64,000 bases of DNA from an uncultured Alphaproteobacteria bacterium (GCA_963780095.1 CAWABH010000053.1:60273-124272); one strand, 5' to 3'. Counted from the stretch's first letter, positions 3,923-61,134 are shown. Translations and numbers: made by a program. The notes: generated from the sequence alone by a model not told the origin.

Positions 3923-4692
3923 TGGCCGACCACCGCAAGCCCAAGCTCGCCGTCTGGAAATTCGCCTCCTGCGATGGCTGCCAGCTTTCGCTGCTCGACT
4001 GCGAGGACGAAATTCTGGCGGTGGCCGGCGCAATCGACATCGCGTATTTCCCCGAGGCAACCCGCGGTGTCGTGCGCGGGCCGTACGACGTGTCGCTGGT
4101 CGAGGGCTCGGTCACCACCCCGCATGACGCCGAACGGCTTCACGCGGTACGGCGGCAGACGCGCACGCTGATCACCATCGGCGCGTGCGCCACGGCGGGC
4201 GGCATCCAGGCGCTGCGCAACTTCAAGGACGTGCGCGAGTTCACTCAGGCAGTTTATGCGCGACCCGAGTTCATCGACACTCTGGCAACCTCCACGCCGA
4301 TCAAGGCGCATGTCAACGTCGATTACGAATTGCACGGCTGCCCGATCAGCAAGCAGCAGCTGCTCGAGGTGCTCACGGCCTTTCTCAACGCACGCAAGCC
4401 GAACATCCCGCCGCACAGCGTCTGCGTCGAATGCAAACTCCGTGGCACCGCCTGCGTTCTTGTGCGCGGCATCCCGTGCCTCGGCCCGGTGACACACGCC
4501 GGCTGTGGTGCAATCTGCCCCGCCTACAACCGCGGCTGCTATGGCTGTTTCGGTCCCATGGAGACGCCGAACACCGTATCGCTGAGCCGCAAGCTGGCTG
4601 CGTGCGGCGATGAAGGAGCGCGACCTTCAGCGCGTCTACAGCACGTTCAATGTCGGCGAGCCGCCGTTCCGCCAGGAAAGCGCGCGGCATGA
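3919..4692 (+). CDS. [NiFe]-hydrogenase small (delta/NuoB-like) subunit; C-terminal about 28 codons probably out of frame
   Basis: [31 protein letters not shown] and ..[38 protein letters not shown] carry the expected motifs. The ATG overlaps the upstream stop (ATGA). After ..KLAACG the tail becomes Arg/Ala/Pro-rich, while the +1 frame from 4610 reads [29 protein letters not shown] (to 4699). Confidence 0.8.
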
Positions 4693-5975
4693 ACCGTAAG
4701 ACGATCAAGGTCGATTACCTCGCCCGCGTGGAGGGCGAGGGCGGCGTGCGCATCACATTCGAGGACCGCATCGTGCGCAACGTCGAATTGCGCATATTCG
4801 AGCCGCCGCGCTTCTTCGAGGCCTTCCTGCGCGGACGCGACTATACCGAAGCGCCCGACATCACCGCGCGCATCTGTGGTATCTGCCCGGTCGCCTACCA
4901 GATGAGCGCGGTGCACGCGATGGAGGACGCGCTCGGCGTCACGGTCAGCGAACCTGTGCGGGAGCTACGGCGGCTGCTGTATTGCGGCGAATGGATCGAG
5001 AGCCACGTGCTTCACATCTACATGCTGCACGCGCCCGACTTCCTGGGCTACCAGGGCGCGATCGAGATGGCGAAGGACCATGGCGACGTCGTGCGCAAGG
5101 GCCTCGAACTGAAGAAGGTCGGCAACGAGATTCTGGAACTTCTCGGTGGGCGCGCGATCCATCCGGTCAATGTGCGGGTGGGCGGCTTCTACCGCACGCC
5201 TTCGCGCCGCGAGTTACGGCCCCTGGCCGAGAATCTGCGGCGCGCGCGCGACATCGCCCAGGCAACGGTGCGCTTTGTGTCCGGCTTCGATTTCCCCGAT
5301 TGCGAGCGCGACTACGAGTTTGTCGCACTCGGCGCGGCGGGCGAATACCCGTTCAACGCCGGCCACGTCGTGTCGAACAAGGGCTTGGACATCACGCCGC
5401 AGGAGTATGACGCGCATTTCGAGGAGTTGCATGTAAAGCGTTCCAACGCGCTGCACTCGCATTTGCGCGGCCGGCCCTACCTTACCGGCCCGATTGCGCG
5501 CTACAGCCTGAATTCCAATCTGCTCTCGCCGCTGGCGCGCGAGGCGGCGAAGGAGGCCGGGTTGGGCCCGACCTGCAACAATCCGTTCCGCAGCATTGTG
5601 GTGCGCGCGGTGGAGGTGGTGTACGCGTGCGACGAGGCGCTTCGCATTATCGATGCATACCAGGAGCCGGAGCACCCGCATCTCGATCTGTCGCCGCGTG
5701 CCGGGACTGGCTATGCCTGCACCGAAGCGCCGCGCGGCATGCTGTATCACCGTTACCGGCTGGACGCAGACGGAACCATCCAGGATGCCAAGATCGTGCC
5801 GCCGACTTCGCAGAATCAGCCGAGCATCGAGGACGATCTGAAGAACTTTGCCGCCGACTGGCTGGACATGCCGGAAGAAGCGCTGCGGATCCGCTGCGAG
5901 CAGGCGGTACGAAATCATGATCCATGTATCTCCTGCGCGACGCACTTTCTGAAGCTGGAAGTTGTGCGTGGCTGA
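4689..5975 (+). CDS. [NiFe]-hydrogenase large (alpha) subunit, group 3-like
   Basis: N-terminal [10 protein letters not shown] and C-terminal DPCISCATH nickel-binding motifs, followed by a short extension (FLKLEVVRG) for proteolytic maturation. Starts [19 protein letters not shown]. Confidence 0.9.
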
Positions 5976-6459
5976 GCGGCTGGTGCTCGGCATCGGCAAT
6001 CCTGATCGAGGCGACGATGCAGTGGGCCGGCTGATTGCGCGAACCCTGCGAACGCGAGTGCCGGCGGATGTGCAGGTTTCCGAACAGGACGGCGAAGCGA
6101 CGGCGCTCGTTGCCGAGCTTCAGTCAGCGCGACGTGCGTGGCTGATCGATGCTGCCCGATCCGGCGCCCCACCCGGCACGATCCAGCGCATCGATTGTTC
6201 CACCGCCGATCTTGCCACCGCGCTCGGCACCGTCTCGTCGCACGGCTTCGGTGTAGCCGAGGCGATTGCGCTCGCGCGTGCGCTGGAGGTGCTGCCGCTT
6301 CAGTGCATTGTCTATGCTGTCGAGGCGGCGGACTTCACCGACGGGGCTGTGCTGACGCACGCGGTGGCGAAAGCGATGGATAATGTCGTGGAGCAAATTC
6401 TGGCGGACCTACGGAGCCCCTCCCCGACCCTCCCCCGCTCGCGGGAGAGGGAGCCCTAA
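5962..6459 (+). CDS. hydrogenase maturation endopeptidase (HoxW/HyaD family)
   Basis: [16 protein letters not shown] ... SSHGFG are motifs of the HycI/HyaD protease family. It overlaps the large-subunit stop. The last about 14 codons lie inside a REP element. Confidence 0.8.
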
Positions 6460-6496
6460 ACTCTCTCCCGCGAAGCGGGGGAGGGTCGGCGTGGGG
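6417..6496. repeat. REP-B palindromic element (CCCCTCCCCGACCCTCCCCCGCTCGCGGGAGAG / CTCTCCCGCGAAGCGGGGGAGGGTCGG)
   Basis: About 33-nt inverted arms sit between convergent genes. A second copy lies at 54750-54838. Confidence 0.85.
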
Positions 6497-6497
6497 G

Positions 6498-7817
6498 TTA
6501 CTCCGCCGCCGCCTTCACGCCACCGCCGGCGGCATCCAGCGCCTGCGACAGATCGGCGATGATATCGTCGATGTGCTCGATGCCCACCGACAGCCGGATA
6601 TAGCCCGGCGTCACACCCGTCGCGAGCTGTTCCGCCGCTGTAAGCTGCGAATGGGTCGTGCTGGCCGGATGGATCGCTAGGCTCCGCGAATCGCCGATGT
6701 TCGCCACGTGGTAGAACATCTTCAGCGCATCGATGAACGCGCGGCCCGCTTCGATGCCGCCGGCCAGCTCAAACCCGAGCAATCCGCCCTGACCATGCGG
6801 CAGATACTTCGCCGTGCGCTCCGCCGCGACGCCCTTGTGAAACGCCGGATGGATGACCCGTGTCACCTCACTGCGTCCCGATAAATACTGTGCCACCGCC
6901 AGCGTATTCTTGCAGTGCTCGCGCATGCGCAGCGGCATGCTCTCAAGACCCTGGATGAACAGGAACGCATTGAACGGGCTCATCGCCGCGCCGAGGTCGC
7001 GCAACAGCACGACGCGCATGCGCAGGATATAGGCGATCGGCCCCAGCGGCTTGGCTGCTTCAGCCCAGACCGCGCCATGATAACTGGGGTCCGGCGTGTT
7101 CAGCAGCGGCTGACGTGCCTTATGCTGATCCCAGGGGAAGTTGCCGCCATCGATCACCACGCCGCCGATCGAAGTGCCATGGCCGCCGATGTACTTTGTC
7201 GTAGAATACATCACCACCGCAGCGCCATGATCGAACGGCCGCACCAGGATCGGCGCGGCGGTGTTGTCCATGATCAGCGGAATGCCAAATCGCCGCCCGA
7301 TCGCGGCAACCTCGGCGATGGGAAACGCGATCAGTTTCGGGTTCGGCAGCGTCTCGGCGTAGTAGGCGCGCGTGCGGTCGTCGGTGGCGCGTGCGAACGC
7401 CTCCGGGTCGGTTGGATCGACGAAGCGCGTCTCGATCCCCTGGTCCTTCAGCGTGTTGGCGAAGAGATTCCAGGTGCCGCCATACAGGTCGGTGGAGCTG
7501 ACGATATTGTCGCCGACGCGTGCCAGGTTCTGCACCGAGAAGCCCGACGCCGCCTGGCCCGAGGCGAGCGCGAGCGCCGCGACACCGCCCTCTAGCGCGG
7601 CGACGCGCTTCTCAAACACATCCTGCGTCGGGTTCATGATGCGGGTGTATATGTTGCCCAGTTCCTTCAGGCCGAACAGGTTTGCCGCGTGTTCGGCGCT
7701 GTCGAACTGGTAGGACGTGGTCTGGTAGATCGGCACTGCGACGGCATTGGTTGCAGGATCGCGCCGCCAGCCGGCGTGCAGCGCCAGAGTCTCCGGATGC
7801 TTCATCTCATTGGACAT
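6498..7817 (-). CDS. metY: O-acetylhomoserine aminocarboxypropyltransferase (sulfhydrylase), PLP-dependent
   Basis: 439 aa. HPETLALHAG..PIYQTTSYQFDS..GNIYTRIMNPT..STTKYIGGHG match the Cys/Met-metabolism PLP enzyme family, MetY type. Confidence 0.9.
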   Translation of the reverse strand: MSNEMKHPETLALHAGWRRDPATNAVAVPIYQTTSYQFDSAEHAANLFGLKELGNIYTRIMNPTQDVFEKRVAALEGGVAALALASGQAASGFSVQNLARVGDNIVSSTDLYGGTWNLFANTLKDQGIETRFVDPTDPEAFARATDDRTRAYYAETLPNPKLIAFPIAEVAAIGRRFGIPLIMDNTAAPILVRPFDHGAAVVMYSTTKYIGGHGTSIGGVVIDGGNFPWDQHKARQPLLNTPDPSYHGAVWAEAAKPLGPIAYILRMRVVLLRDLGAAMSPFNAFLFIQGLESMPLRMREHCKNTLAVAQYLSGRSEVTRVIHPAFHKGVAAERTAKYLPHGQGGLLGFELAGGIEAGRAFIDALKMFYHVANIGDSRSLAIHPASTTHSQLTAAEQLATGVTPGYIRLSVGIEHIDDIIADLSQALDAAGGGVKAAAE

Positions 7818-54749: not shown

Positions 54750-54838
54750 GCCCTCCCCGACCCTCCCCCGCTTCGCGGGAGAGTGGGATAAAATGCGCCC
54801 CCTCTCCCGCGAAGCGGGGGAGGGTTGGGGAGGGGGCG
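54750..54838. repeat. REP-B palindromic element, copy 2
   Basis: GCCCTCCCCGACCCTCCCCCGCTTCGCGGGAGAG ... CCTCTCCCGCGAAGCGGGGGAGGGTTGGGGAGGGGGC. Confidence 0.85.
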
Positions 54839-54908
54839 CCGGACGATTAGCAACACTCGACGACCGGCCGCTATACTGCCTGGCAGCTTCAGACAGGAGC
54901 GTCGAACG

Positions 54909-55815
54909 ATGAGCATCAGCATCCGTCAGGTCCATCCGGTCTTTGTCGGCGAGGTGTCCGGCATCGACATCTCGCAGCCGCTCACGAAGGATCAGGTCGC
55001 TGCCATCGAGGCGGGCATGGACCGCCATGCCGTCCTGGTGTTCCGCGACCAGCCATTGACCGACGAACAGCAGCTCGTGTTCAGCCGCAATTTCGGCGAG
55101 CTGGAGGTCACGCTGGCCGGCCAGATGGCCAAGCCCGAGGACCGCCGGCTCGGCGACAGGCTGGAACTCGGCGACATCTCCAACCTCACGGCGCAGAACG
55201 AACTGCGCGCGCGTGACGACAGCCGCCGGATGTACGCGCTGGCCAATCGGCTATGGCACTCCGACGCATCGTTCCGCACAGTCGGCGCCGGCTATACGCT
55301 GCTGCACGGGCGCGTCATTCCGGGCAAGGGCGGCAATACCGAATTCGCCGACATGCGCGCCGCCTACGACGCGCTCGACGATACGACCAAGGTGGAGATC
55401 GAGGACCTGGTCACCGAACACTCGATCGTCTTCTCCCGCGAGCAGATAGGCTTTTCCGACTATGGCGAAGGGAACGCCGACAAGCTCCGTCCGGTGCGGC
55501 ACCGCCTGGTGATCACCCATCCGGTGAGCGGGCGCAAGTCGCTGTATCTGTCATCGCATATCGGCGGCATCGTCGGCTGGCCAATGCCGGAAGCGCGCGC
55601 CTTCATCCGCGACCTGATGGAGCATGCCACCCAGCCGGAATTCGTCTATGCGCATGAGTGGCGGGTGAACGATCTGGTGATGTGGGACAACCGCACTGTC
55701 ATGCACCGTGCGCGCCGCTTCGATGACATGCGGGAGGTGCGCGACCTGCGGCGCACGTCGATCAAGGGGACCGGACTCGACAGTGGAACTGGCACCGGTG
55801 CAGGCTGCGGAGTAA
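54909..55815 (+). CDS. TfdA/TauD-family Fe(II)/2-oxoglutarate dioxygenase, paralogue 1 (3' end reconstructed across a G-run at 55767-55770)
   Basis: MSISIRQVHPVFVGEVSGIDISQPL..WHSDASF..TEFADMRAAYDAL..MWDNRTVMHRA. As assembled it runs into paralogue 2 (630-aa ORF). Removing one G gives ..IKGPDSTVELAPVQAAE* with TAA 55813-55815, just before an RBS plus ATG 55821. Confidence 0.65.
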
Positions 55816-55820
55816 TCGCC

Positions 55821-56717
55821 ATGACGATCGGTATTCACCAGATCCATTCGGTGTTCGCGGGCGAGGTGTCCGGCGTGGACATCACACGTCCGATCGCGCG
55901 GGACGAGGTCGCGGCGATCGAGGCGGGCATGGACCGATACGCGGTCCTGGTGTTCCGCGACCAGCGCCTGACCGACGAGACGCAACTGGCGTTTACGCTG
56001 AACTTCGGCGACCTGGAGCATACGCGTGGCAACGCCATCACCAAGCCGGAGGAGATGCGTCTCGATCCGGCGTTCGCCGACGTGTCCAACCTCGACAAGA
56101 ACCATCGGCCGCTGGCGCGCGACAGCCGGCGCCGGCTGTATGCGTTGGGCAACCGGCTTTGGCACTCCGACAGTTCATTCCGGGCCGTCCCGGCGACGTA
56201 TTCGCTGCTGTCCGGCCGTATCGTCGTGGACAAGGGCGGTGAGACCGAGTTCGCCGATCTGCGCGCCGCCTATGACGCGCTGGATGCGGCGACCAAGGCC
56301 GAGGTCGAGGATCTCGTGTGCGAACACTCGCTGATGTTCTCGCGCGGGCAGTTGGGGTTCAGCGAATTTTCTGCTGATGAACGCGAGGCGATGCGGCCGG
56401 TGCGTCAGCGCCTGGTGCGTACGCATCCGGTGACCGGGCGGAAATCGCTGTTCCTGGCAGCGCATATCGGCACAATTGTCGGCTGGCCGACGCCGGAGGC
56501 GCGCGCCTTCATCCGCGACCTGATGGAGCACGCGACGCAGCCGCAGTTCGTCTATTCGCACAAGTGGCGGCAATGGGATCTGGTGATGTGGGACAACCGC
56601 CAGGTCATGCACCGCGTGCGCCGGTTCGACGATTCCAAGGTTCGCGATATGCGGCGCACCACGCGTCGGCGGCACGGTGATGACGGCGGAACAGGAAGAG
56701 CCCGCGCCGCCGAATGA
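55821..56717 (+). CDS. TfdA/TauD-family dioxygenase, paralogue 2
   Basis: MTIGIHQIHSVFAGEVSGVDITRPI... shows the same motif set. The last about 18 codons (RRRHGDDGGTGRARAAE) look out of frame relative to paralogue 3 (TTVGGTVMTAEQ.. in the +1 frame). Confidence 0.75.
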   Translation: MTIGIHQIHSVFAGEVSGVDITRPIARDEVAAIEAGMDRYAVLVFRDQRLTDETQLAFTLNFGDLEHTRGNAITKPEEMRLDPAFADVSNLDKNHRPLARDSRRRLYALGNRLWHSDSSFRAVPATYSLLSGRIVVDKGGETEFADLRAAYDALDAATKAEVEDLVCEHSLMFSRGQLGFSEFSADEREAMRPVRQRLVRTHPVTGRKSLFLAAHIGTIVGWPTPEARAFIRDLMEHATQPQFVYSHKWRQWDLVMWDNRQVMHRVRRFDDSKVRDMRRTTRRRHGDDGGTGRARAAE

Positions 56718-56736
56718 CATCGCGGGAGATGAAGCC

Positions 56737-57618
56737 GTGACCATCAGCATTGGACAGATCACACCGGTGTTCGCCGGTGAAGTCTCCGGCGTCGATATCA
56801 CGCAGCCGTTGTCGCGCGACGAGGCGGCGGCGATCGAGGCGGGCATGGACCGCTACGCCGTCCTGGTGTTCCACGACCAGCGCCTGACCGACGATGCGCA
56901 GCGGGCGTTCACGCGCAACTTCGGCACGCTGGAGGCATCGCCCGGCGGCAACATCACCAAACTGCACGAACGCCGCCTGCCGCTCGACATGCAGGACGCG
57001 TCCAATCTGGGCACGGATGAGCAACCGCTGGCACGCGACGACCGGCGGCGGATGTTCAACCTCGGCAACCGGTTGTGGCATTCGGATAGCTCGTATCGTG
57101 CTGTGCCGGCGAAGTATTCGCTGCTGTCCGGGCGGATCGTGGTGGACCACGGCGGCCATACCGAATTCGCCGACATGCGTGCCGCCTACGATGCGCTGGA
57201 CGATGACACGAAGGTCGAGATCGAAGACCTGGTCTGCGAACATTCGCTGATGTTCTCGCGCGGTTTGCTCGGCTTCACCGAACTGTCGGCGGAGGAGCGG
57301 GCGATGTTCAAGCCGGTGCGCCAGCGCCTGGTGCGCACGCATCCGGTGACCGGGCGCAAGTCGCTGTTCCTGTCGGCACATGGCGGCACCATCGTCGGCT
57401 GGCCGGTGCCGGAGGCGCGCGCCTTCCTGCGCGATCTGGTGGAGCATGCGACGCAGAAGCGTTTCGTCTATTCGCACAAGTGGCGGCAGTGGGATCTGGT
57501 GATCTGGGACAACCGCCAGACCATGCACCGGGTCACGCGGTTCGATGAGACGCAGGTGCGCGACATGCGCCGCACCACGGTCGCCGGCGATGCGATGACG
57601 GTGGCGCAGGCGGCTTAG
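56737..57618 (+). CDS. TfdA/TauD-family dioxygenase, paralogue 3
   Basis: GTG 56737 follows GGGAGA. (M)TISIGQITPVFAGEVSGVDITQPL...WHSDSSY...IWDNRQTMHRV...RRTTVAGDAMTVAQAA*. Confidence 0.8.
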   Translation: MTISIGQITPVFAGEVSGVDITQPLSRDEAAAIEAGMDRYAVLVFHDQRLTDDAQRAFTRNFGTLEASPGGNITKLHERRLPLDMQDASNLGTDEQPLARDDRRRMFNLGNRLWHSDSSYRAVPAKYSLLSGRIVVDHGGHTEFADMRAAYDALDDDTKVEIEDLVCEHSLMFSRGLLGFTELSAEERAMFKPVRQRLVRTHPVTGRKSLFLSAHGGTIVGWPVPEARAFLRDLVEHATQKRFVYSHKWRQWDLVIWDNRQTMHRVTRFDETQVRDMRRTTVAGDAMTVAQAA

Positions 57619-57622
57619 TCGC

Positions 57623-57943
57623 CTATGCCTCCTTGCCCCACGTCAGGGTCACCTTGAATTCGGCTTCTCCATCGCCGGACACGATCCACAGGTCGCACTC
57701 GCCGCTGATGGAGGCACGGAATTCCATCTCGACCTTTTCCGGCCGATGCGGCATTCGGCCGATCTTTTCCTCCATCATCGAAACAAGGTCACCGAGCGTT
57801 CCAAGTGCGGATTTGAAGCCATCGGCGGTGGCCTTGGCAACATCGCCAACCAGGGAGACCTCGGAGAGGCCGGTGACGGCTGCTCCGCGGCCGAGGATGA
57901 GTTTGTTGCCGTTGGCGAATTCCACTACCATCGGTGCGGCCAT
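57623..57943 (-). CDS. Trypco1-like (CU044_2847-family-like) trypsin-co-occurring small protein
   Basis: 106 aa. MAAPMVVEFANGNKLILG...FKSALGTLGDLVSMMEEKI...PEKVEMEFRASISGECDLWIVSGDGEAEFKVTLTWGKEA. AGGAGA RBS. The layout matches my recollection of the family and was not profile-searched. Confidence 0.6.
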   Translation of the reverse strand: MAAPMVVEFANGNKLILGRGAAVTGLSEVSLVGDVAKATADGFKSALGTLGDLVSMMEEKIGRMPHRPEKVEMEFRASISGECDLWIVSGDGEAEFKVTLTWGKEA

Positions 57944-57961
57944 CCTGTTCTCCTGTGTGTC

Positions 57962-60046
57962 ATGGTTGAGACGTCGCTGGTATATATACACCGGATACGA
58001 CCGACGAAGACATTCGTCGGCTGCGGTGTGCTTGTGACGGGCGATTGCATAGCCACCTGCCGCCACGTCTGGCGGGCCGCTACGGCGGAGTTCCACAGCG
58101 ACGCGGATGGTCAGCCGAGGGCGCAGGTGGAATTCCCGCAATTCTGGCGCGACGGCACGCGGATGACGTGTGGCGTGTCGCTGGCCGATCCGTGCCGTGC
58201 AGGCCCGGACGGGCCCGAGCCGGATCTCGTGCTGCTGCAACCCGACGCGGTTCCCGAGAGCGCAGTTCGGCTGGCCCCGGCCAGCGCGGAACGATACGAG
58301 ACCGGCAACGGCTATGCCTTTGCCGGCCTGCCGGGGCGCGATCCATCGAATCCCTCGCTGGTGCAGGAAGTGAATGTTCCCGGGGTCATTGTCAGCACGT
58401 TGCGCAGCGATCGGCGCCGCCAGTTCTCCGGGGCGAACCCGCAAGGCTACTGGACAGACCGCGGATCGAGCGGTTCTCCGGTGTTCCTGGAAAAAGGCGA
58501 GCAACTGGCGGGGATCATCAGCCTGTCGGAGACCGGCAGGAAGTCCGGAGAAAGTCCGATCCACGAGGCATTCGTGGTACCCGGCACACTGATCCGGCGA
58601 TATCTGGAGGCACTCGCCGCTGTCAGGCGGGTTGCAGAAAGCGAACGGGTTCCTGCTGCCCGGTTGCAGCCCATTTTAGATGCGATCGGTGCCGCCGATA
58701 CGCCGCCGGACCAGATGCCCGAGCGGCTGCATCAGTTCGTCGAGGCTGCGAGGGCGCGCGGCGCGGAACAGGTGCGGCTGTCGAATGAGGGTGCCGACAT
58801 CGACGCAGTGATCGGTGCGGCGCGTGACAAGCTTGGCGCGCTGGACGTCGCGGGTGCGCGCGGCGTGTTGCAGGCGAAGATCGCCGAGGAGGATGACGCC
58901 AGGCGTGTCCGCATGCTGCCGCTGCTGAAGGAGCGTGCGGCGATCGAGCGGTTGGCGTTCGACCATGCCGCGGCGCAGGCGACATTCGGCGAGATCACGC
59001 GGCTTTCGCCGGATGATGTGTGGGCCTGGATCGACCTGGGCCGCGAGTGGCTTGCGACCGGTCCGCTGGACAGTGCCCTCGGAAGTTTCCGCTCGGCGCA
59101 GGCGGCGGCCGAGAGCAGCAACAACCAACGGGACCTGGCTGTCAGCCGCAATTGGATTGGCGATGTGCTGGTGGCGCAGGGCGACCTGCCGGGCGCCCTG
59201 GAGGCCTATCGCAAGAGCCTCGCAATCGCGGAGACGCTGGCCGCGCGCGATCCGGGTAACATCCAGTGGCAGCACGACCTGTCGATCAGCCACGAGAGGC
59301 TCGGCGATGTGCTGGAGGCACAGGGCGACCTGCCGGGCGCGCTGGATGTGTATCGCAAGGGCCTCGCGATCAGGGAGACGCTGGCGGTACGCGATGCCCG
59401 CAACACGCAGTGGCAGCGCGGCCTGTCGGCAAGCCACTTCAGGATCGGCGATGTGCTGAAAGCGCAGGGCAATCTACCTTGCGCAATGGCCGCCTATCGC
59501 AAGTGTCTGGAGATCGCAGATAAGCTGGTGGCGCGCGATCCCAGCAACACACTTTGGCGGCATCATCTGTTGATTAGCCATGAGAGGGTCGGCAATATGC
59601 TGATGCAGCAAGATGATCTGCCGGGCGCGATGGCCGAGTATCGCACGCGCCTGGAGATCGTAACGGCGCTGACGGTGCTCGATACCCACAACACATTTTG
59701 GCAACGCGAGCTGGCAGTCAGCCACAACAAGATTGGCGACGTGCTGAAAAGGGAGGGTGACCTGCCGGGCGCACTAGAGGCCCATCGCAAGAGCCTCGCG
59801 ATCAGGGATACGCTGGCGGGACGCGATGCCGGCAACACGCAGTGGCAGCGCGACCTGTCGGTCAGTCTCGGACGAGTCGCAGATACTCTGATCGAGCAAC
59901 GAAATATCACCGAAGCACGACCTCTGGCGGAGCGCGCCCTGACACAAGTCCGCGCCGCGATCGCCAGGTTTCCCGACGATCCACGCATCGCACGGGATTT
60001 GCCCTATTACGAAAGTCTGCTCCTCCGCGCTGGTGGCACACCATGA
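57962..60046 (+). CDS. trypsin-like serine protease fused to TPR-like (48-aa) repeats
   Basis: S1 triad: His35 (ATCRHVW, CAC 58064-58066), Asp88 (EPDLVLLQ, GAT 58223-58225), Ser170 (DRGSSGSPVF, AGC 58469-58471). A helical linker follows, then at least 5 units of ..WQRDLSVSHxxIGDVLxAQGDLPGALEAYRKSLAIRETLAxRDPxNTQ.. The ATG has no obvious SD. Confidence 0.8.
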   Translation: MVETSLVYIHRIRPTKTFVGCGVLVTGDCIATCRHVWRAATAEFHSDADGQPRAQVEFPQFWRDGTRMTCGVSLADPCRAGPDGPEPDLVLLQPDAVPESAVRLAPASAERYETGNGYAFAGLPGRDPSNPSLVQEVNVPGVIVSTLRSDRRRQFSGANPQGYWTDRGSSGSPVFLEKGEQLAGIISLSETGRKSGESPIHEAFVVPGTLIRRYLEALAAVRRVAESERVPAARLQPILDAIGAADTPPDQMPERLHQFVEAARARGAEQVRLSNEGADIDAVIGAARDKLGALDVAGARGVLQAKIAEEDDARRVRMLPLLKERAAIERLAFDHAAAQATFGEITRLSPDDVWAWIDLGREWLATGPLDSALGSFRSAQAAAESSNNQRDLAVSRNWIGDVLVAQGDLPGALEAYRKSLAIAETLAARDPGNIQWQHDLSISHERLGDVLEAQGDLPGALDVYRKGLAIRETLAVRDARNTQWQRGLSASHFRIGDVLKAQGNLPCAMAAYRKCLEIADKLVARDPSNTLWRHHLLISHERVGNMLMQQDDLPGAMAEYRTRLEIVTALTVLDTHNTFWQRELAVSHNKIGDVLKREGDLPGALEAHRKSLAIRDTLAGRDAGNTQWQRDLSVSLGRVADTLIEQRNITEARPLAERALTQVRAAIARFPDDPRIARDLPYYESLLLRAGGTP
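59123..59902 (+). repeat. in-frame 144-bp (48-aa) tandem repeat array inside the protease-TPR gene
   Basis: The GA(C/T)CTGCCGGGCGC register recurs at 59183, 59327, 59615 and 59759, with a diverged AATCTACCTTGCGC at 59471. The period is exactly 144 bp. Confidence 0.85.
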
Positions 60047-60419: not shown

Positions 60420-60727
60420 TCAGAACAAGCGGCGAAGATCGCGCCGTCCATCGATAATGCGGACGATCTCCACCACATCGACTGCTATGTCGCTGCTATC
60501 CGGATGCATTGCAAATAGCAGAGATTTGGCCGATGCACCAAGGCGCGAAGGCCCGGCCTGACATCCGAGCGCTGCGGCCCCATACGCGGAAACATCGCAA
60601 GCGTCTCGATCCTTGCCGCGATGGCACGCACGACCCTCGTCGCCGCCCGAGTGCTATCGGCTGCGATTGCCAGCCAGATGTCCTCAAGATCGCGTTCAGC
60701 CCGAGCCGTGACGACAATGCGCGTCAC
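60420..60727 (-). pseudogene. parE: ParE/RelE-family toxin; -1 frameshift near 60528 as assembled
   Basis: (GTG)TRIVVTARAERDLEDIWLAIAADSTRAATRVVRAI..FPRMGPQRSDVRPGLRALVHR then, in the other frame, KSLLFAMHPDSSDIAVDVVEIVRIIDGRRDLRRLF*. The GTG start overlaps the parD stop (GTGA). Confidence 0.7.
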
Positions 60728-60998
60728 TCGGCTACGGAGCGGGTCTTTCTGGCGTGTGCGGATGCCAGAATCCGCTCAACGTCAAATGGCTGCGTCGCAC
60801 CATCGGCGCGGCCTTCATCCCACAACGCACGAAGGCGTTGCACGTCCTCCTCATTCAGCGCGTGCCTGACCTGCCAGTCGCTGATTGCTTCCTGAACGAT
60901 TGCGTCAGTCGTTGCGTACCCACCAGCATCGACGGCTGCTGAAGATCGGCAAACTGCGTCTCGGTGAGTTCAATAGTCACGGTTCGGACGTTCGACAT
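60724..60998 (-). pseudogene. parD: ParD-family antitoxin; -1 frameshift near 60936 as assembled
   Basis: MSNVRTVTIELTETQFADLQQ then, in the other frame, AVDAGGYATTDAIVQEAISDWQVRHALNEEDVQRLRALWDEGRADGATQPFDVERILASAHARKTRSVAE*. Confidence 0.7.
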
Positions 60999-61134
60999 GT
61001 CAATGCGGATCCCGGTATCGCGCAACTATAATGGTTGGTGACCACCGACGTCCACAAACGCTGTGGTGCGATCACTCGACAGTTGCCTAACATCGCACCA
61101 GCATCTACGCGAACCAATCCGAAGGGAAACGCCA

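Follow-up and report, generated by a model that had tools for sequence, protein, structure and literature searches.

A head-to-head Trypco1 and trypsin-like protease-TPR gene pair of Alphaproteobacteria as a putative NTPase-free, protease-gated cell-suicide module

Two divergent genes in the genome of an uncultured Alphaproteobacteria bacterium encode a small protein of the Trypco1 family and a trypsin-like (S1) protease fused to tetratricopeptide repeats (TPRs). They occupy positions 57,623 to 60,046 of the stretch of DNA that we analysed (GCA_963780095.1 CAWABH010000053.1:60273-124272; 64,000 nucleotides, hereafter the window). The pair is a module of a known kind, in which a protease is accompanied by a Trypco/Pepco effector. 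It differs from the described modules by fusing the protease to TPRs without a nucleoside triphosphatase (NTPase), by a head-to-head layout that is kept clade-wide and carries a codon-embedded candidate promoter signal, and by a presumed effector, Trypco1, without an activation tail. We favour, by a modest measure of confidence, the reading that the two genes form a self-contained, NTPase-free and protease-gated cell-suicide module of the abortive-infection type.

Direct reading confirmed the two open reading frames (ORFs) that the initial annotation of the window had described, namely a 106-amino-acid (aa) ORF on the minus strand with a good ribosome-binding site and, 18 bp away, a 694-aa ORF on the plus strand. 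The Trypco1 gene begins at ATG 57943-57941 and is preceded, 6 nt 5′ of this ATG, by GGAG, which reads CTCC on the plus strand. The protease-TPR gene extends from ATG 57962 to 60046 and its frame is open over all 694 codons. The features of the pair are given below.

57623..57943, minus strand: Trypco1 (CU044_2847 family) gene, 106 aa (PF19493 and NF041216 profile matches).
57944..57961, no strand: 18-bp gap separating the divergent starts, of insufficient length for two promoters.
57950..57953, minus strand: Shine-Dalgarno (SD) sequence GGAG of Trypco1, within the 18-bp gap (direct reading).
57962..58582, plus strand: S1 protease domain (chymotrypsin-fold, Trypsin_2), aa 1-207 (Pfam, invariant triad and AlphaFold2 model).
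58064-58066, 58223-58225 and 58469-58471, plus strand: catalytic codons of His35, Asp88 and Ser170, respectively.
58583..58846, plus strand: conserved helical linker, aa ~208-295 (AlphaFold2 helices; without a Walker A motif or NTPase domain).
58847..60028, plus strand: TPR superhelix, aa ~296-689, the presumed sensor (Pfam TPR, Tandem Repeats Finder and Foldseek).
59114-59977, plus strand: six 48-aa TPR units, aa 385-672, with conserved frameworks and few hypervariable positions.

Judged by its profile matches, the small protein is a bona fide member of the Trypco1/CU044_2847 family. It scored 57.7 bits against Pfam Trypco1 PF19493 (gathering threshold 24.6; model positions 17-97 of 98) and 43.1 bits against NCBIfam CU044_2847_fam NF041216 (cut-off 23). 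The family had been named in the initial annotation, and rightly so, as both scores exceed the curated cut-offs. The protein has 250 close homologues, the nearest being 93-95% identical to it, and a profile run against 1.84 billion representatives returned 896 Trypco1 clusters at E ≤ 1e-3, nearly all of 100-120 aa. The family-wide core comprises P68, E74, F75 and W102 (diverse alignment A5). Across the family the C-termini lie 0-18 aa past the invariant Trp; the window protein ends in ...KVTLTW-GKEA, 4 aa past W102. In the AlphaFold2 (AF2) model of the monomer, for which the predicted local distance difference test score (pLDDT) was 51, the predicted layout is a beta-hairpin (residues 5-17), a variable Gly-rich loop (18-32), a helix (33-62), an RP linker (67-68) and a second hairpin (70-101). 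The C-terminal hairpin is nearly invariant and its polar and hydrophobic residues alternate strictly, which is a toxin-like feature; the beta hydrophobic moments of strands 70-81 and 90-101 are 0.80 and 0.65, respectively. The helix is moderately amphipathic (moment 0.34-0.41). In the clade of the window protein, G25-L26 forms a conserved island within the hypervariable loop, and G62, M64, R67, P68, W102 and K104 are also nearly invariant. These conserved residues mark three candidate cleavage regions (G25-L26, G62-P68 and W102/K104). No structure resembling Trypco1 was found in PDB, where Foldseek gave nothing below E 0.5 and a profile search of the sequences gave coiled-coil noise on the helix only.

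The linkage of this small gene to the protease gene, which the initial annotation had predicted, holds in all the close relatives that were examined, about 20 alphaproteobacterial loci. A locus scan with the Trypco1 alignment as query and one genome per species returned 27 loci, cited here by L numbers where needed. They came chiefly from Alphaproteobacteria (Bradyrhizobium, Methylobacterium, Methylocystis, Methylocapsa, Roseiarcus, Stellaceae, Acetobacteraceae and metagenome-assembled genomes (MAGs)), together with two from Methanosarcinales/Methanothrix and one from Chloroflexota. A divergent homologue of the window protease starts 10-29 bp from the Trypco1 start in about 19 of the 27 loci; the gap measures 10-26 bp in 17 of them and reaches 29 bp with a conserved M-I-E start. 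The same layout, with gaps of 21, 17 and 20 bp, was seen in loci L031-L033, which belong to Methylorubrum populi, Roseomonas fluvialis and one more MAG, respectively. It was also seen in a relative with 67% protease identity, where three metagenomic contigs carry, in order, OtsA, TauD genes, Trypco1 on the minus strand, an 18-bp gap, the trypsin-TPR gene on the plus strand, a cyclase gene and MlaC. Because the same pair recurs in the same orientation in about 20 other genomes, the pairing is far above chance. Likewise, since the genes are divergent in about 19 of the 27 loci and in L031-L033, the head-to-head layout is a conserved trait of one clade and not an accident. The arrangement, earlier called unusual, is therefore no local oddity. 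The archaeal and Chloroflexi Trypco1 genes are co-directional and lie immediately 5′ of a gene for a protease of 794-1003 aa, as in the published Streptomyces example. In Methylocapsa aurea, M. polymorpha and M. palsarum (L020, L021 and L023), an intact Trypco1 gene at ~7001-7312, whose product is 47-50% identical to that of the window, has no adjacent protease gene and occupies a shared site between a hisZ/hisG-like pair and a gene for a ~700-aa membrane protein. This Methylocapsa Trypco1 either is an orphan effector whose partner is encoded far away or points to a protease-independent role of Trypco1. In L033, a 659-aa guanylate/adenylate cyclase-TPR fusion is encoded at 4781-6760 on the minus strand, ~2 kb from another Trypco1-protease-TPR pair, and is the second effector-TPR protein of that neighbourhood.

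The N-terminal domain of the larger protein is an S1 protease. Pfam Trypsin_2 (PF13365) matches aa 20-180 with 28.5 bits, a marginal score relative to the threshold of 27.6. An alignment of 52 homologues showed H35 (TCRHVW), D88 (PDLVLL) and S170 (GSSGSP; G168/S170/G171/S172) to be invariant. The AF2 model of the full-length protein (mean pLDDT 89.8) consists of an all-beta N-terminal domain at aa 6-207 followed by 26 helices at aa 208-689. The S1 triad that the initial annotation had read at H35/D88/S170 is thus upheld by both its invariance and a confidently modelled all-beta domain. The protease weakly matches V8 glutamyl endopeptidase (S1B), and its hhalign comparison with the protease domain of SsAvs4, the partner of a Pepco protein discussed below, is weak (E 0.0017) with the three catalytic motifs in register. 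Foldseek with the full-length model returned TPR proteins only, and no structural neighbour of the protease domain.

The C-terminal part is a TPR superhelix. TPR_2, TPR_10, TPR_12 and TPR_14 of Pfam score above threshold at aa ~320-690, Tandem Repeats Finder reported a 144-bp unit in 5.1 copies at 59132-59865, and six 48-aa repeats could be aligned at the protein level within aa 385-672. These results, with the helices of the AF2 model, agree with the helical linker and the five or more tandem 48-aa TPR-like units proposed earlier. The top Foldseek matches of the superhelix were the peptide-binding TPR domains of LGN/Pins (E ~1e-11), and designed consensus TPR superhelices were also matched. 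No P-loop or NTPase family was detected in the protein with Pfam and NCBIfam, and the ~90-aa helical linker has no Walker A motif. Homologues range from ~640 to 970 aa and vary in the number of TPR units. In L008 (~4080-6980, minus strand), the homologue has 967 aa and carries the 48-aa repeat in 12 nearly identical copies, distinguished by a few positions only, which suggests that the array evolves in concert or recombines internally, as in NLR-type sensors. In L014 (~5525-6981, minus strand; 481 aa) and L024 (~5720-6985, minus strand; 421 aa), the head-to-head core is kept and the C-terminal domain is a non-TPR domain without a Pfam match; these domains are candidate alternative sensors. Variable repeats and swapped C-terminal domains are what a modular immune sensor would be expected to show. 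In other database proteins the same type of TPR is joined to TIR, NB-ARC, nSTAND1, kinase and cyclase domains.

The public gene call of the identical protein (P0121, 639 aa; NCBI/ENA) begins at V56 and leaves out codons 1-55 (57962-58126), including catalytic His35, so that automated annotation would miss an intact protease here. On the evidence of sequence conservation, this start is wrong and the true start is ATG 57962, because at least 20 loci share a conserved N-terminal protein sequence that opens at this ATG. Its consensus is M-(I/V)-E-T-x-L-V-Y-I (MVETSLVYIH in the window), and in most loci the tblastn alignments of the protease domain open at query residue 1-3. A longer in-frame ORF from 57746 was rejected, as it is merely the antisense of the Trypco1 gene. 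The public call would be correct if the protease gene were truly truncated and the pair a decaying, non-functional relic. The lack of His35 in P0121, the lack of an SD sequence before ATG 57962, the frameshifts in several homologous loci and a decayed ParDE pair next door would all agree with decay. However, the full 694-codon frame is open behind its conserved N-terminus, the catalytic triad is invariant, and an intact Trypco1 shares 93-95% identity with its nearest homologues. The absence of an SD sequence is not a lesion either. Neither the window nor any homologous locus has a purine-rich SD before the protease ATG, and the SD-less start pointed out in the initial annotation is thus a trait of the whole family; the CTCC/TCCC element of the gap, that is the SD of Trypco1, is present in nearly all of these loci. 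We therefore regard a relic as highly improbable. The frames of the protease and/or Trypco1 are interrupted in L006, L007, L010, L015 and L017, which are MFD MAGs. We did not rely on these interruptions as a sign of selection against the system, since assembly frameshifts are common in long-read MAGs.

In L001-L004 and L006, the pair occupies the same chromosomal site as in the window, between TauD-like genes and a cyclase gene. Close relatives are named as Acetobacteraceae MAGs, while look-ups of the exact sequences returned neither window protein. The flanking genes of the window and its relatives are 83% (OtsA), 89% (TauD), 95% (cyclase) and 74% (MlaC) identical. Within the module, identity to L001 is 93% for Trypco1, 76% for the protease domain, 79% for the linker (50-60% to more distant loci) and 59% for the TPR region. 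Thus Trypco1 is highly conserved and the TPR region diverges faster than the surrounding genes. As the pair sits at the same place in close relatives, it has been inherited at this locus, and these syntenic relatives, together with an unremarkable GC content, rule out a recent horizontal insertion in the window genome. In more distant genomes the pair lies among other, unrelated genes of a housekeeping kind (purA/purB; Rrf2/IscS; acyl-CoA dehydrogenase), which fits a relocating two-gene cassette. The accessory insertion suggested in the initial annotation therefore does not apply to the close relatives, and its cassette-like aspect stands for the distant ones. No MoxR, vWA, VMAP-C, iSTAND/STAND or other NTPase gene lies within ~8-10 kb of the pair in the flanks examined (the window, and the Pfam-annotated neighbours in L001-L003 and L031-L033). 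There being no STAND, MoxR or vWA partner, the TPR array is fused directly to the protease, and without an NTPase module the activation of the window protease cannot be nucleotide-dependent.

The first codons of Trypco1 carry a conserved signal on the protease strand. Codon 6 of Trypco1 is constrained: it is NTA (ATA, GTA or TTA) in 15 of 16 loci, and in 17 of 19 with L031-L033, against 6.9% NTA among the Ile/Val/Leu codons elsewhere in the same genes. It is not NTA in two of the three protease-less Methylocapsa Trypco1 genes. The plus-strand consensus over the 5′ codons of Trypco1 is ...tTT.Tt... 17 nt ...ACTAtCAT, and a TAnCAT is conserved on the protease strand because codon 6 supplies its TA. 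In the window, the corresponding candidate elements are as follows.

57926..57931, plus strand: candidate -10 box TACCAT of the protease gene (complement of Trypco1 codons 5-6, ATG GTA).
57903..57908, plus strand: weak candidate -35 box TTGTTG, 17 nt 5′ of the candidate -10 box (complement of Trypco1 codons 12-14).

The -35 candidate may alternatively be explained by amino-acid constraint (N13, K14). The candidate promoter would give the protease mRNA an SD-less 5′ leader of ~22-24 nt, and with such an embedded element a leaderless mRNA is not required. Of the two promoters that the initial annotation had proposed inside the coding region of the partner, that of the protease thus has a candidate -10 box in Trypco1 codons; for Trypco1, no comparably conserved element was seen in protease codons. 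TATATATA at 57983-57990 (protease codons 7-10) was considered as a -10 box of Trypco1 and set aside, because its nucleotides are not conserved elsewhere: only the amino acids V-Y-I are conserved at this site, the minus-strand consensus is GATGTAGAC, and the rare Leu codon CTA occurs in 6 of 16 loci. No promoter was returned when 57400-58400 was scanned with strict sigma-70 criteria. The scan did return one hairpin resembling a terminator, at 57740-57771 of the plus strand, within the stretch antisense to Trypco1 and ~120 nt past the TauD stop; it consists of CGGCCGATGCGGCATTCGGCCG with a T-rich run after it. The hairpin could stop read-through from TauD into the protease gene, although a single such hairpin is no more than chance would give (0.7 expected).

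Trypco1 and Trypco2 were named by Kaur et al. (eLife 2020; PMC7159879), who described them as neighbours of trypsin-like peptidases, mutually exclusive in their occurrence, in ternary conflict systems of the vWA-MoxR type, and Dore et al. class Trypco1 as an 'adapter domain'. Evans et al. (November 2025; bioRxiv 10.1101/2025.11.14.688446) use the name Pepco for both families. In their work on Streptomyces subrutilus, the trypsin domain of SsAvs4 cuts SsPepco after Ile97 and removes a 20-aa tail, and SsPepco forms beta-barrels of 9-10 subunits that resist sodium dodecyl sulfate. Toxicity was seen with the exact processed form only and needed the catalytic Ser and the N-terminal amphipathic helix. 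SsPepco is a Trypco2 (PF19631, 65.6 bits), so these experiments concern the sister family. The conflict or defence role assigned in the initial annotation agrees with this published view of the families (PMC7159879; bioRxiv 10.1101/2025.11.14.688446). Its remark that experimental characterisation was lacking has been overtaken for the wider Pepco group, in which SsPepco has been tested, and holds for Trypco1 and the TPR architecture.

The window pair resembles the Pepco system in that a small non-enzymatic protein of ~100-120 aa adjoins an active S1-type protease fused to a repeat-containing sensor. Both would follow a modular order of sensor, protease and latent effector, and the small protein of the window, like SsPepco, is predicted to consist of one helix and amphipathic beta-strands. 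On this basis, the 694-aa protein would act as a single-chain sensor and executor, the TPR superhelix of which may bind a protein or peptide derived from an invader, probably a phage. Binding, or the oligomerisation resulting from it, would turn on the N-terminal S1 protease, which would then cut its dedicated substrate Trypco1 at a specific site and convert a harmless pro-form into a membrane-active toxin. The cleaved Trypco1 would most likely be an oligomeric beta-barrel made of the amphipathic C-terminal hairpin, and its damage to the membrane would kill or arrest the infected cell. The promoter of the protease, at least, would lie within the first codons of Trypco1, where it would couple the expression of the two genes and probably keep it low. 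We infer the cleavage of Trypco1, the toxicity of the cleaved form, its action on the membrane and the phage-protein trigger from Trypco2/Pepco (Evans et al. 2025).

Several points weigh against this proposal. Trypco1 and Trypco2 are separate Pfam families (PF19493 and PF19631), and hhalign comparison of Trypco1 (A1, A5) with SsPepco and with the Trypco2 profile A4 gave probabilities of 0.3-1% and E values of 0.056-0.18, none of them significant. Trypco2 has a disordered, charged and Pro-rich C-terminal tail of 20-70 aa after a conserved ...KI|RR site, and it is the removal of this tail that activates SsPepco, whereas Trypco1 has neither the tail nor the site. In the AF2 monomer model of Trypco1, which is of low confidence (pLDDT 51), the topology is unlike that of SsPepco: the helix is central instead of N-terminal and is preceded by an extra hairpin and loop. 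That the pair works like Pepco would thus be a reasonable reading of its context, while the homology, the tail and the Ile site of the tested Pepco are not seen in it. At the level of the locus, the three Methylocapsa Trypco1 genes have no protease gene beside them, and the pair is surrounded by housekeeping genes with no recognisable defence island. No copies were found in phage collections (a scan of IMG/VR and an INPHARED search of GenBank phages), and a plasmid search gave five weak or partial matches only, on megaplasmids or chromids. PADLOC-DB v2 holds no matching model: Trypco1 had no match, and the protease matched a generic TPR model only (E 1e-4), with a further weak match to LmuA (E 0.013). 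As for the embedded promoter, the binomial test on codon 6 treats related loci as independent and its P value therefore overstates the evidence, and codons near the 5′ end are often AT-rich on other grounds, for example because such codons are favoured in translation initiation.

The protease itself might be the effector that degrades host or phage proteins, with Trypco1 as a regulator or adaptor, such as a stoichiometric inhibitor, a pseudo-substrate, a silencing chaperone or an antitoxin-like protein. Kaur et al. (PMC7159879) indeed put the peptidases in the effector position and Trypco in that of a partner of unknown role, and the listing of Trypco1 under 'adapter domains' by Dore et al. 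points the same way. The tight divergent co-regulation resembles the logic of toxin-antitoxin pairs, Trypco1 has no Trypco2-like tail or detectable homology to Trypco2, and Methylocapsa tolerates orphan Trypco1 genes. However, deletion of SsPepco (a Trypco2) abolished toxicity and the truncated small protein alone killed cells (bioRxiv 10.1101/2025.11.14.688446). The nearly invariant and strongly amphipathic hairpin of Trypco1 fits a structural or membrane role. Moreover, one would expect co-evolution between an inhibitor and a fast-changing partner, yet Trypco1 is the most conserved part of the module (93% versus 76%). We consider the protease an unlikely effector.

Alternatively, the pair might be a proteolytic module outside defence, for example a stress or quality-control pair in which the TPRs bind a client from the cell itself and Trypco1 undergoes processing as a regulatory or structural protein. 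Its housekeeping or metabolic flanks in all contexts seen (OtsA/TauD/cyclase, purA/purB, Rrf2/IscS and acyl-CoA dehydrogenase), its vertical retention at one locus in the lineage of the window, and the lack of PADLOC matches and of phage-borne copies, with few on plasmids, would suit such a role. Evans et al. also note protease-effector modules fused to DnaK-like chaperones (bioRxiv 10.1101/2025.11.14.688446). Against it stand the patchy distribution of the pair and its differing context between genera, the fast divergence and varying unit number of the repeat sensor, and the swapping of C-terminal sensors on the same core. The same type of TPR is also joined to the immunity-typical TIR and STAND domains, and disrupted copies are frequent, some of them possibly owing to assembly errors. 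A role outside defence therefore seems decidedly unlikely to us.

A variant of the cell-suicide reading, which we likewise hold to be improbable, is that Trypco1 represents an effector family evolutionarily and mechanistically apart from Trypco2/Pepco, with a different cut, no NTPase, and an obligate head-to-head arrangement in which the promoters lie in the first codons of each other's genes. The cut may then remove the 2-4 C-terminal residues after the invariant Trp, release the N-terminal hairpin at G25-L26, or fall in the G62-x-M64...R67-P68 linker. Overlapping antisense 5′ ends or transcriptional interference may set the ratio of protease to toxin. If true, this wiring would add a layer of regulation that has not been described in defence modules of the protease-effector type.

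Returning to the protease-gated suicide module that we favour, its remaining differences from Pepco concern the architecture and the hosts. The presumed sensor of the window protein consists of TPRs only, whereas Avs4 has a STAND ATPase; the window genes are divergent, whereas the published pair is co-directional; and the host clade is Alphaproteobacteria, whereas the Pepco systems are from actinomycetes or cyanobacteria. With the vWA-MoxR (VMAP) systems (PMC7159879) the module shares the Trypco1 family, a trypsin-like peptidase partner, a predicted role in conflict and the common use of TPR or other repeat arrays. Unlike those ternary systems, it is a stand-alone pair of genes with no NTPase component nearby. 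The Avs/STAND sensors are similar in joining an N-terminal effector domain to a C-terminal TPR sensor, and homologous TPR arrays are found on NB-ARC, nSTAND1 and TIR domains. In the window protein, however, the NTPase switch is absent and a ~90-aa helical linker takes its place. In bacterial gasdermin-protease and EACC1-caspase modules, a single specific cut by an adjacent protease with a repeat sensor likewise frees an effector that forms pores. Their effectors belong to families unrelated to Trypco1, with no gasdermin or EACC1 match in the window proteins, the proteases of those modules are mostly caspase-like, and Trypco1 has no obvious separate autoinhibitory domain.

The surroundings of the pair in the window include a decayed ParDE at 60485-61025 on the minus strand. 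Its ParE (60485-60727, 80 aa) is truncated and matches positions 1-63 of the 89-position Pfam model, and its ParD-like antitoxin is broken up between two ORFs, at 60724-60843 and 60855-61025. The ParDE and antitoxin remnant that the initial annotation had placed beside the pair are thus present, and they are private to the window; in the syntenic loci L001-L006 the cyclase gene directly follows the protease gene. On the other side, 54825-57618 on the plus strand holds three tandem TauD/TfdA-like dioxygenase paralogues, the first two merged in a 630-aa ORF (54825-56717). The TauD array of L001-L003 is arranged differently, with a DUF2147 gene on the opposite strand and fragmented TauD calls.

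Among the logics of prokaryotic immunity, the gating of death effectors by proteases, which parallels caspase-gasdermin signalling, has recently emerged as one of the most widespread. The locus described here is a minimal case, made of one sensor-protease polypeptide and one presumed effector of 106 aa, with no ATPase. In practical terms, a public gene call that drops the catalytic histidine would cause the protease to be overlooked by automated annotation. The conserved head-to-head layout with its codon-embedded candidate promoter signal offers a testable example of regulation written into coding sequence. Finally, the cut site and the action of Trypco1 would tell whether Trypco1 and Trypco2 share one mechanism or are convergent partners of trypsin-like proteases.

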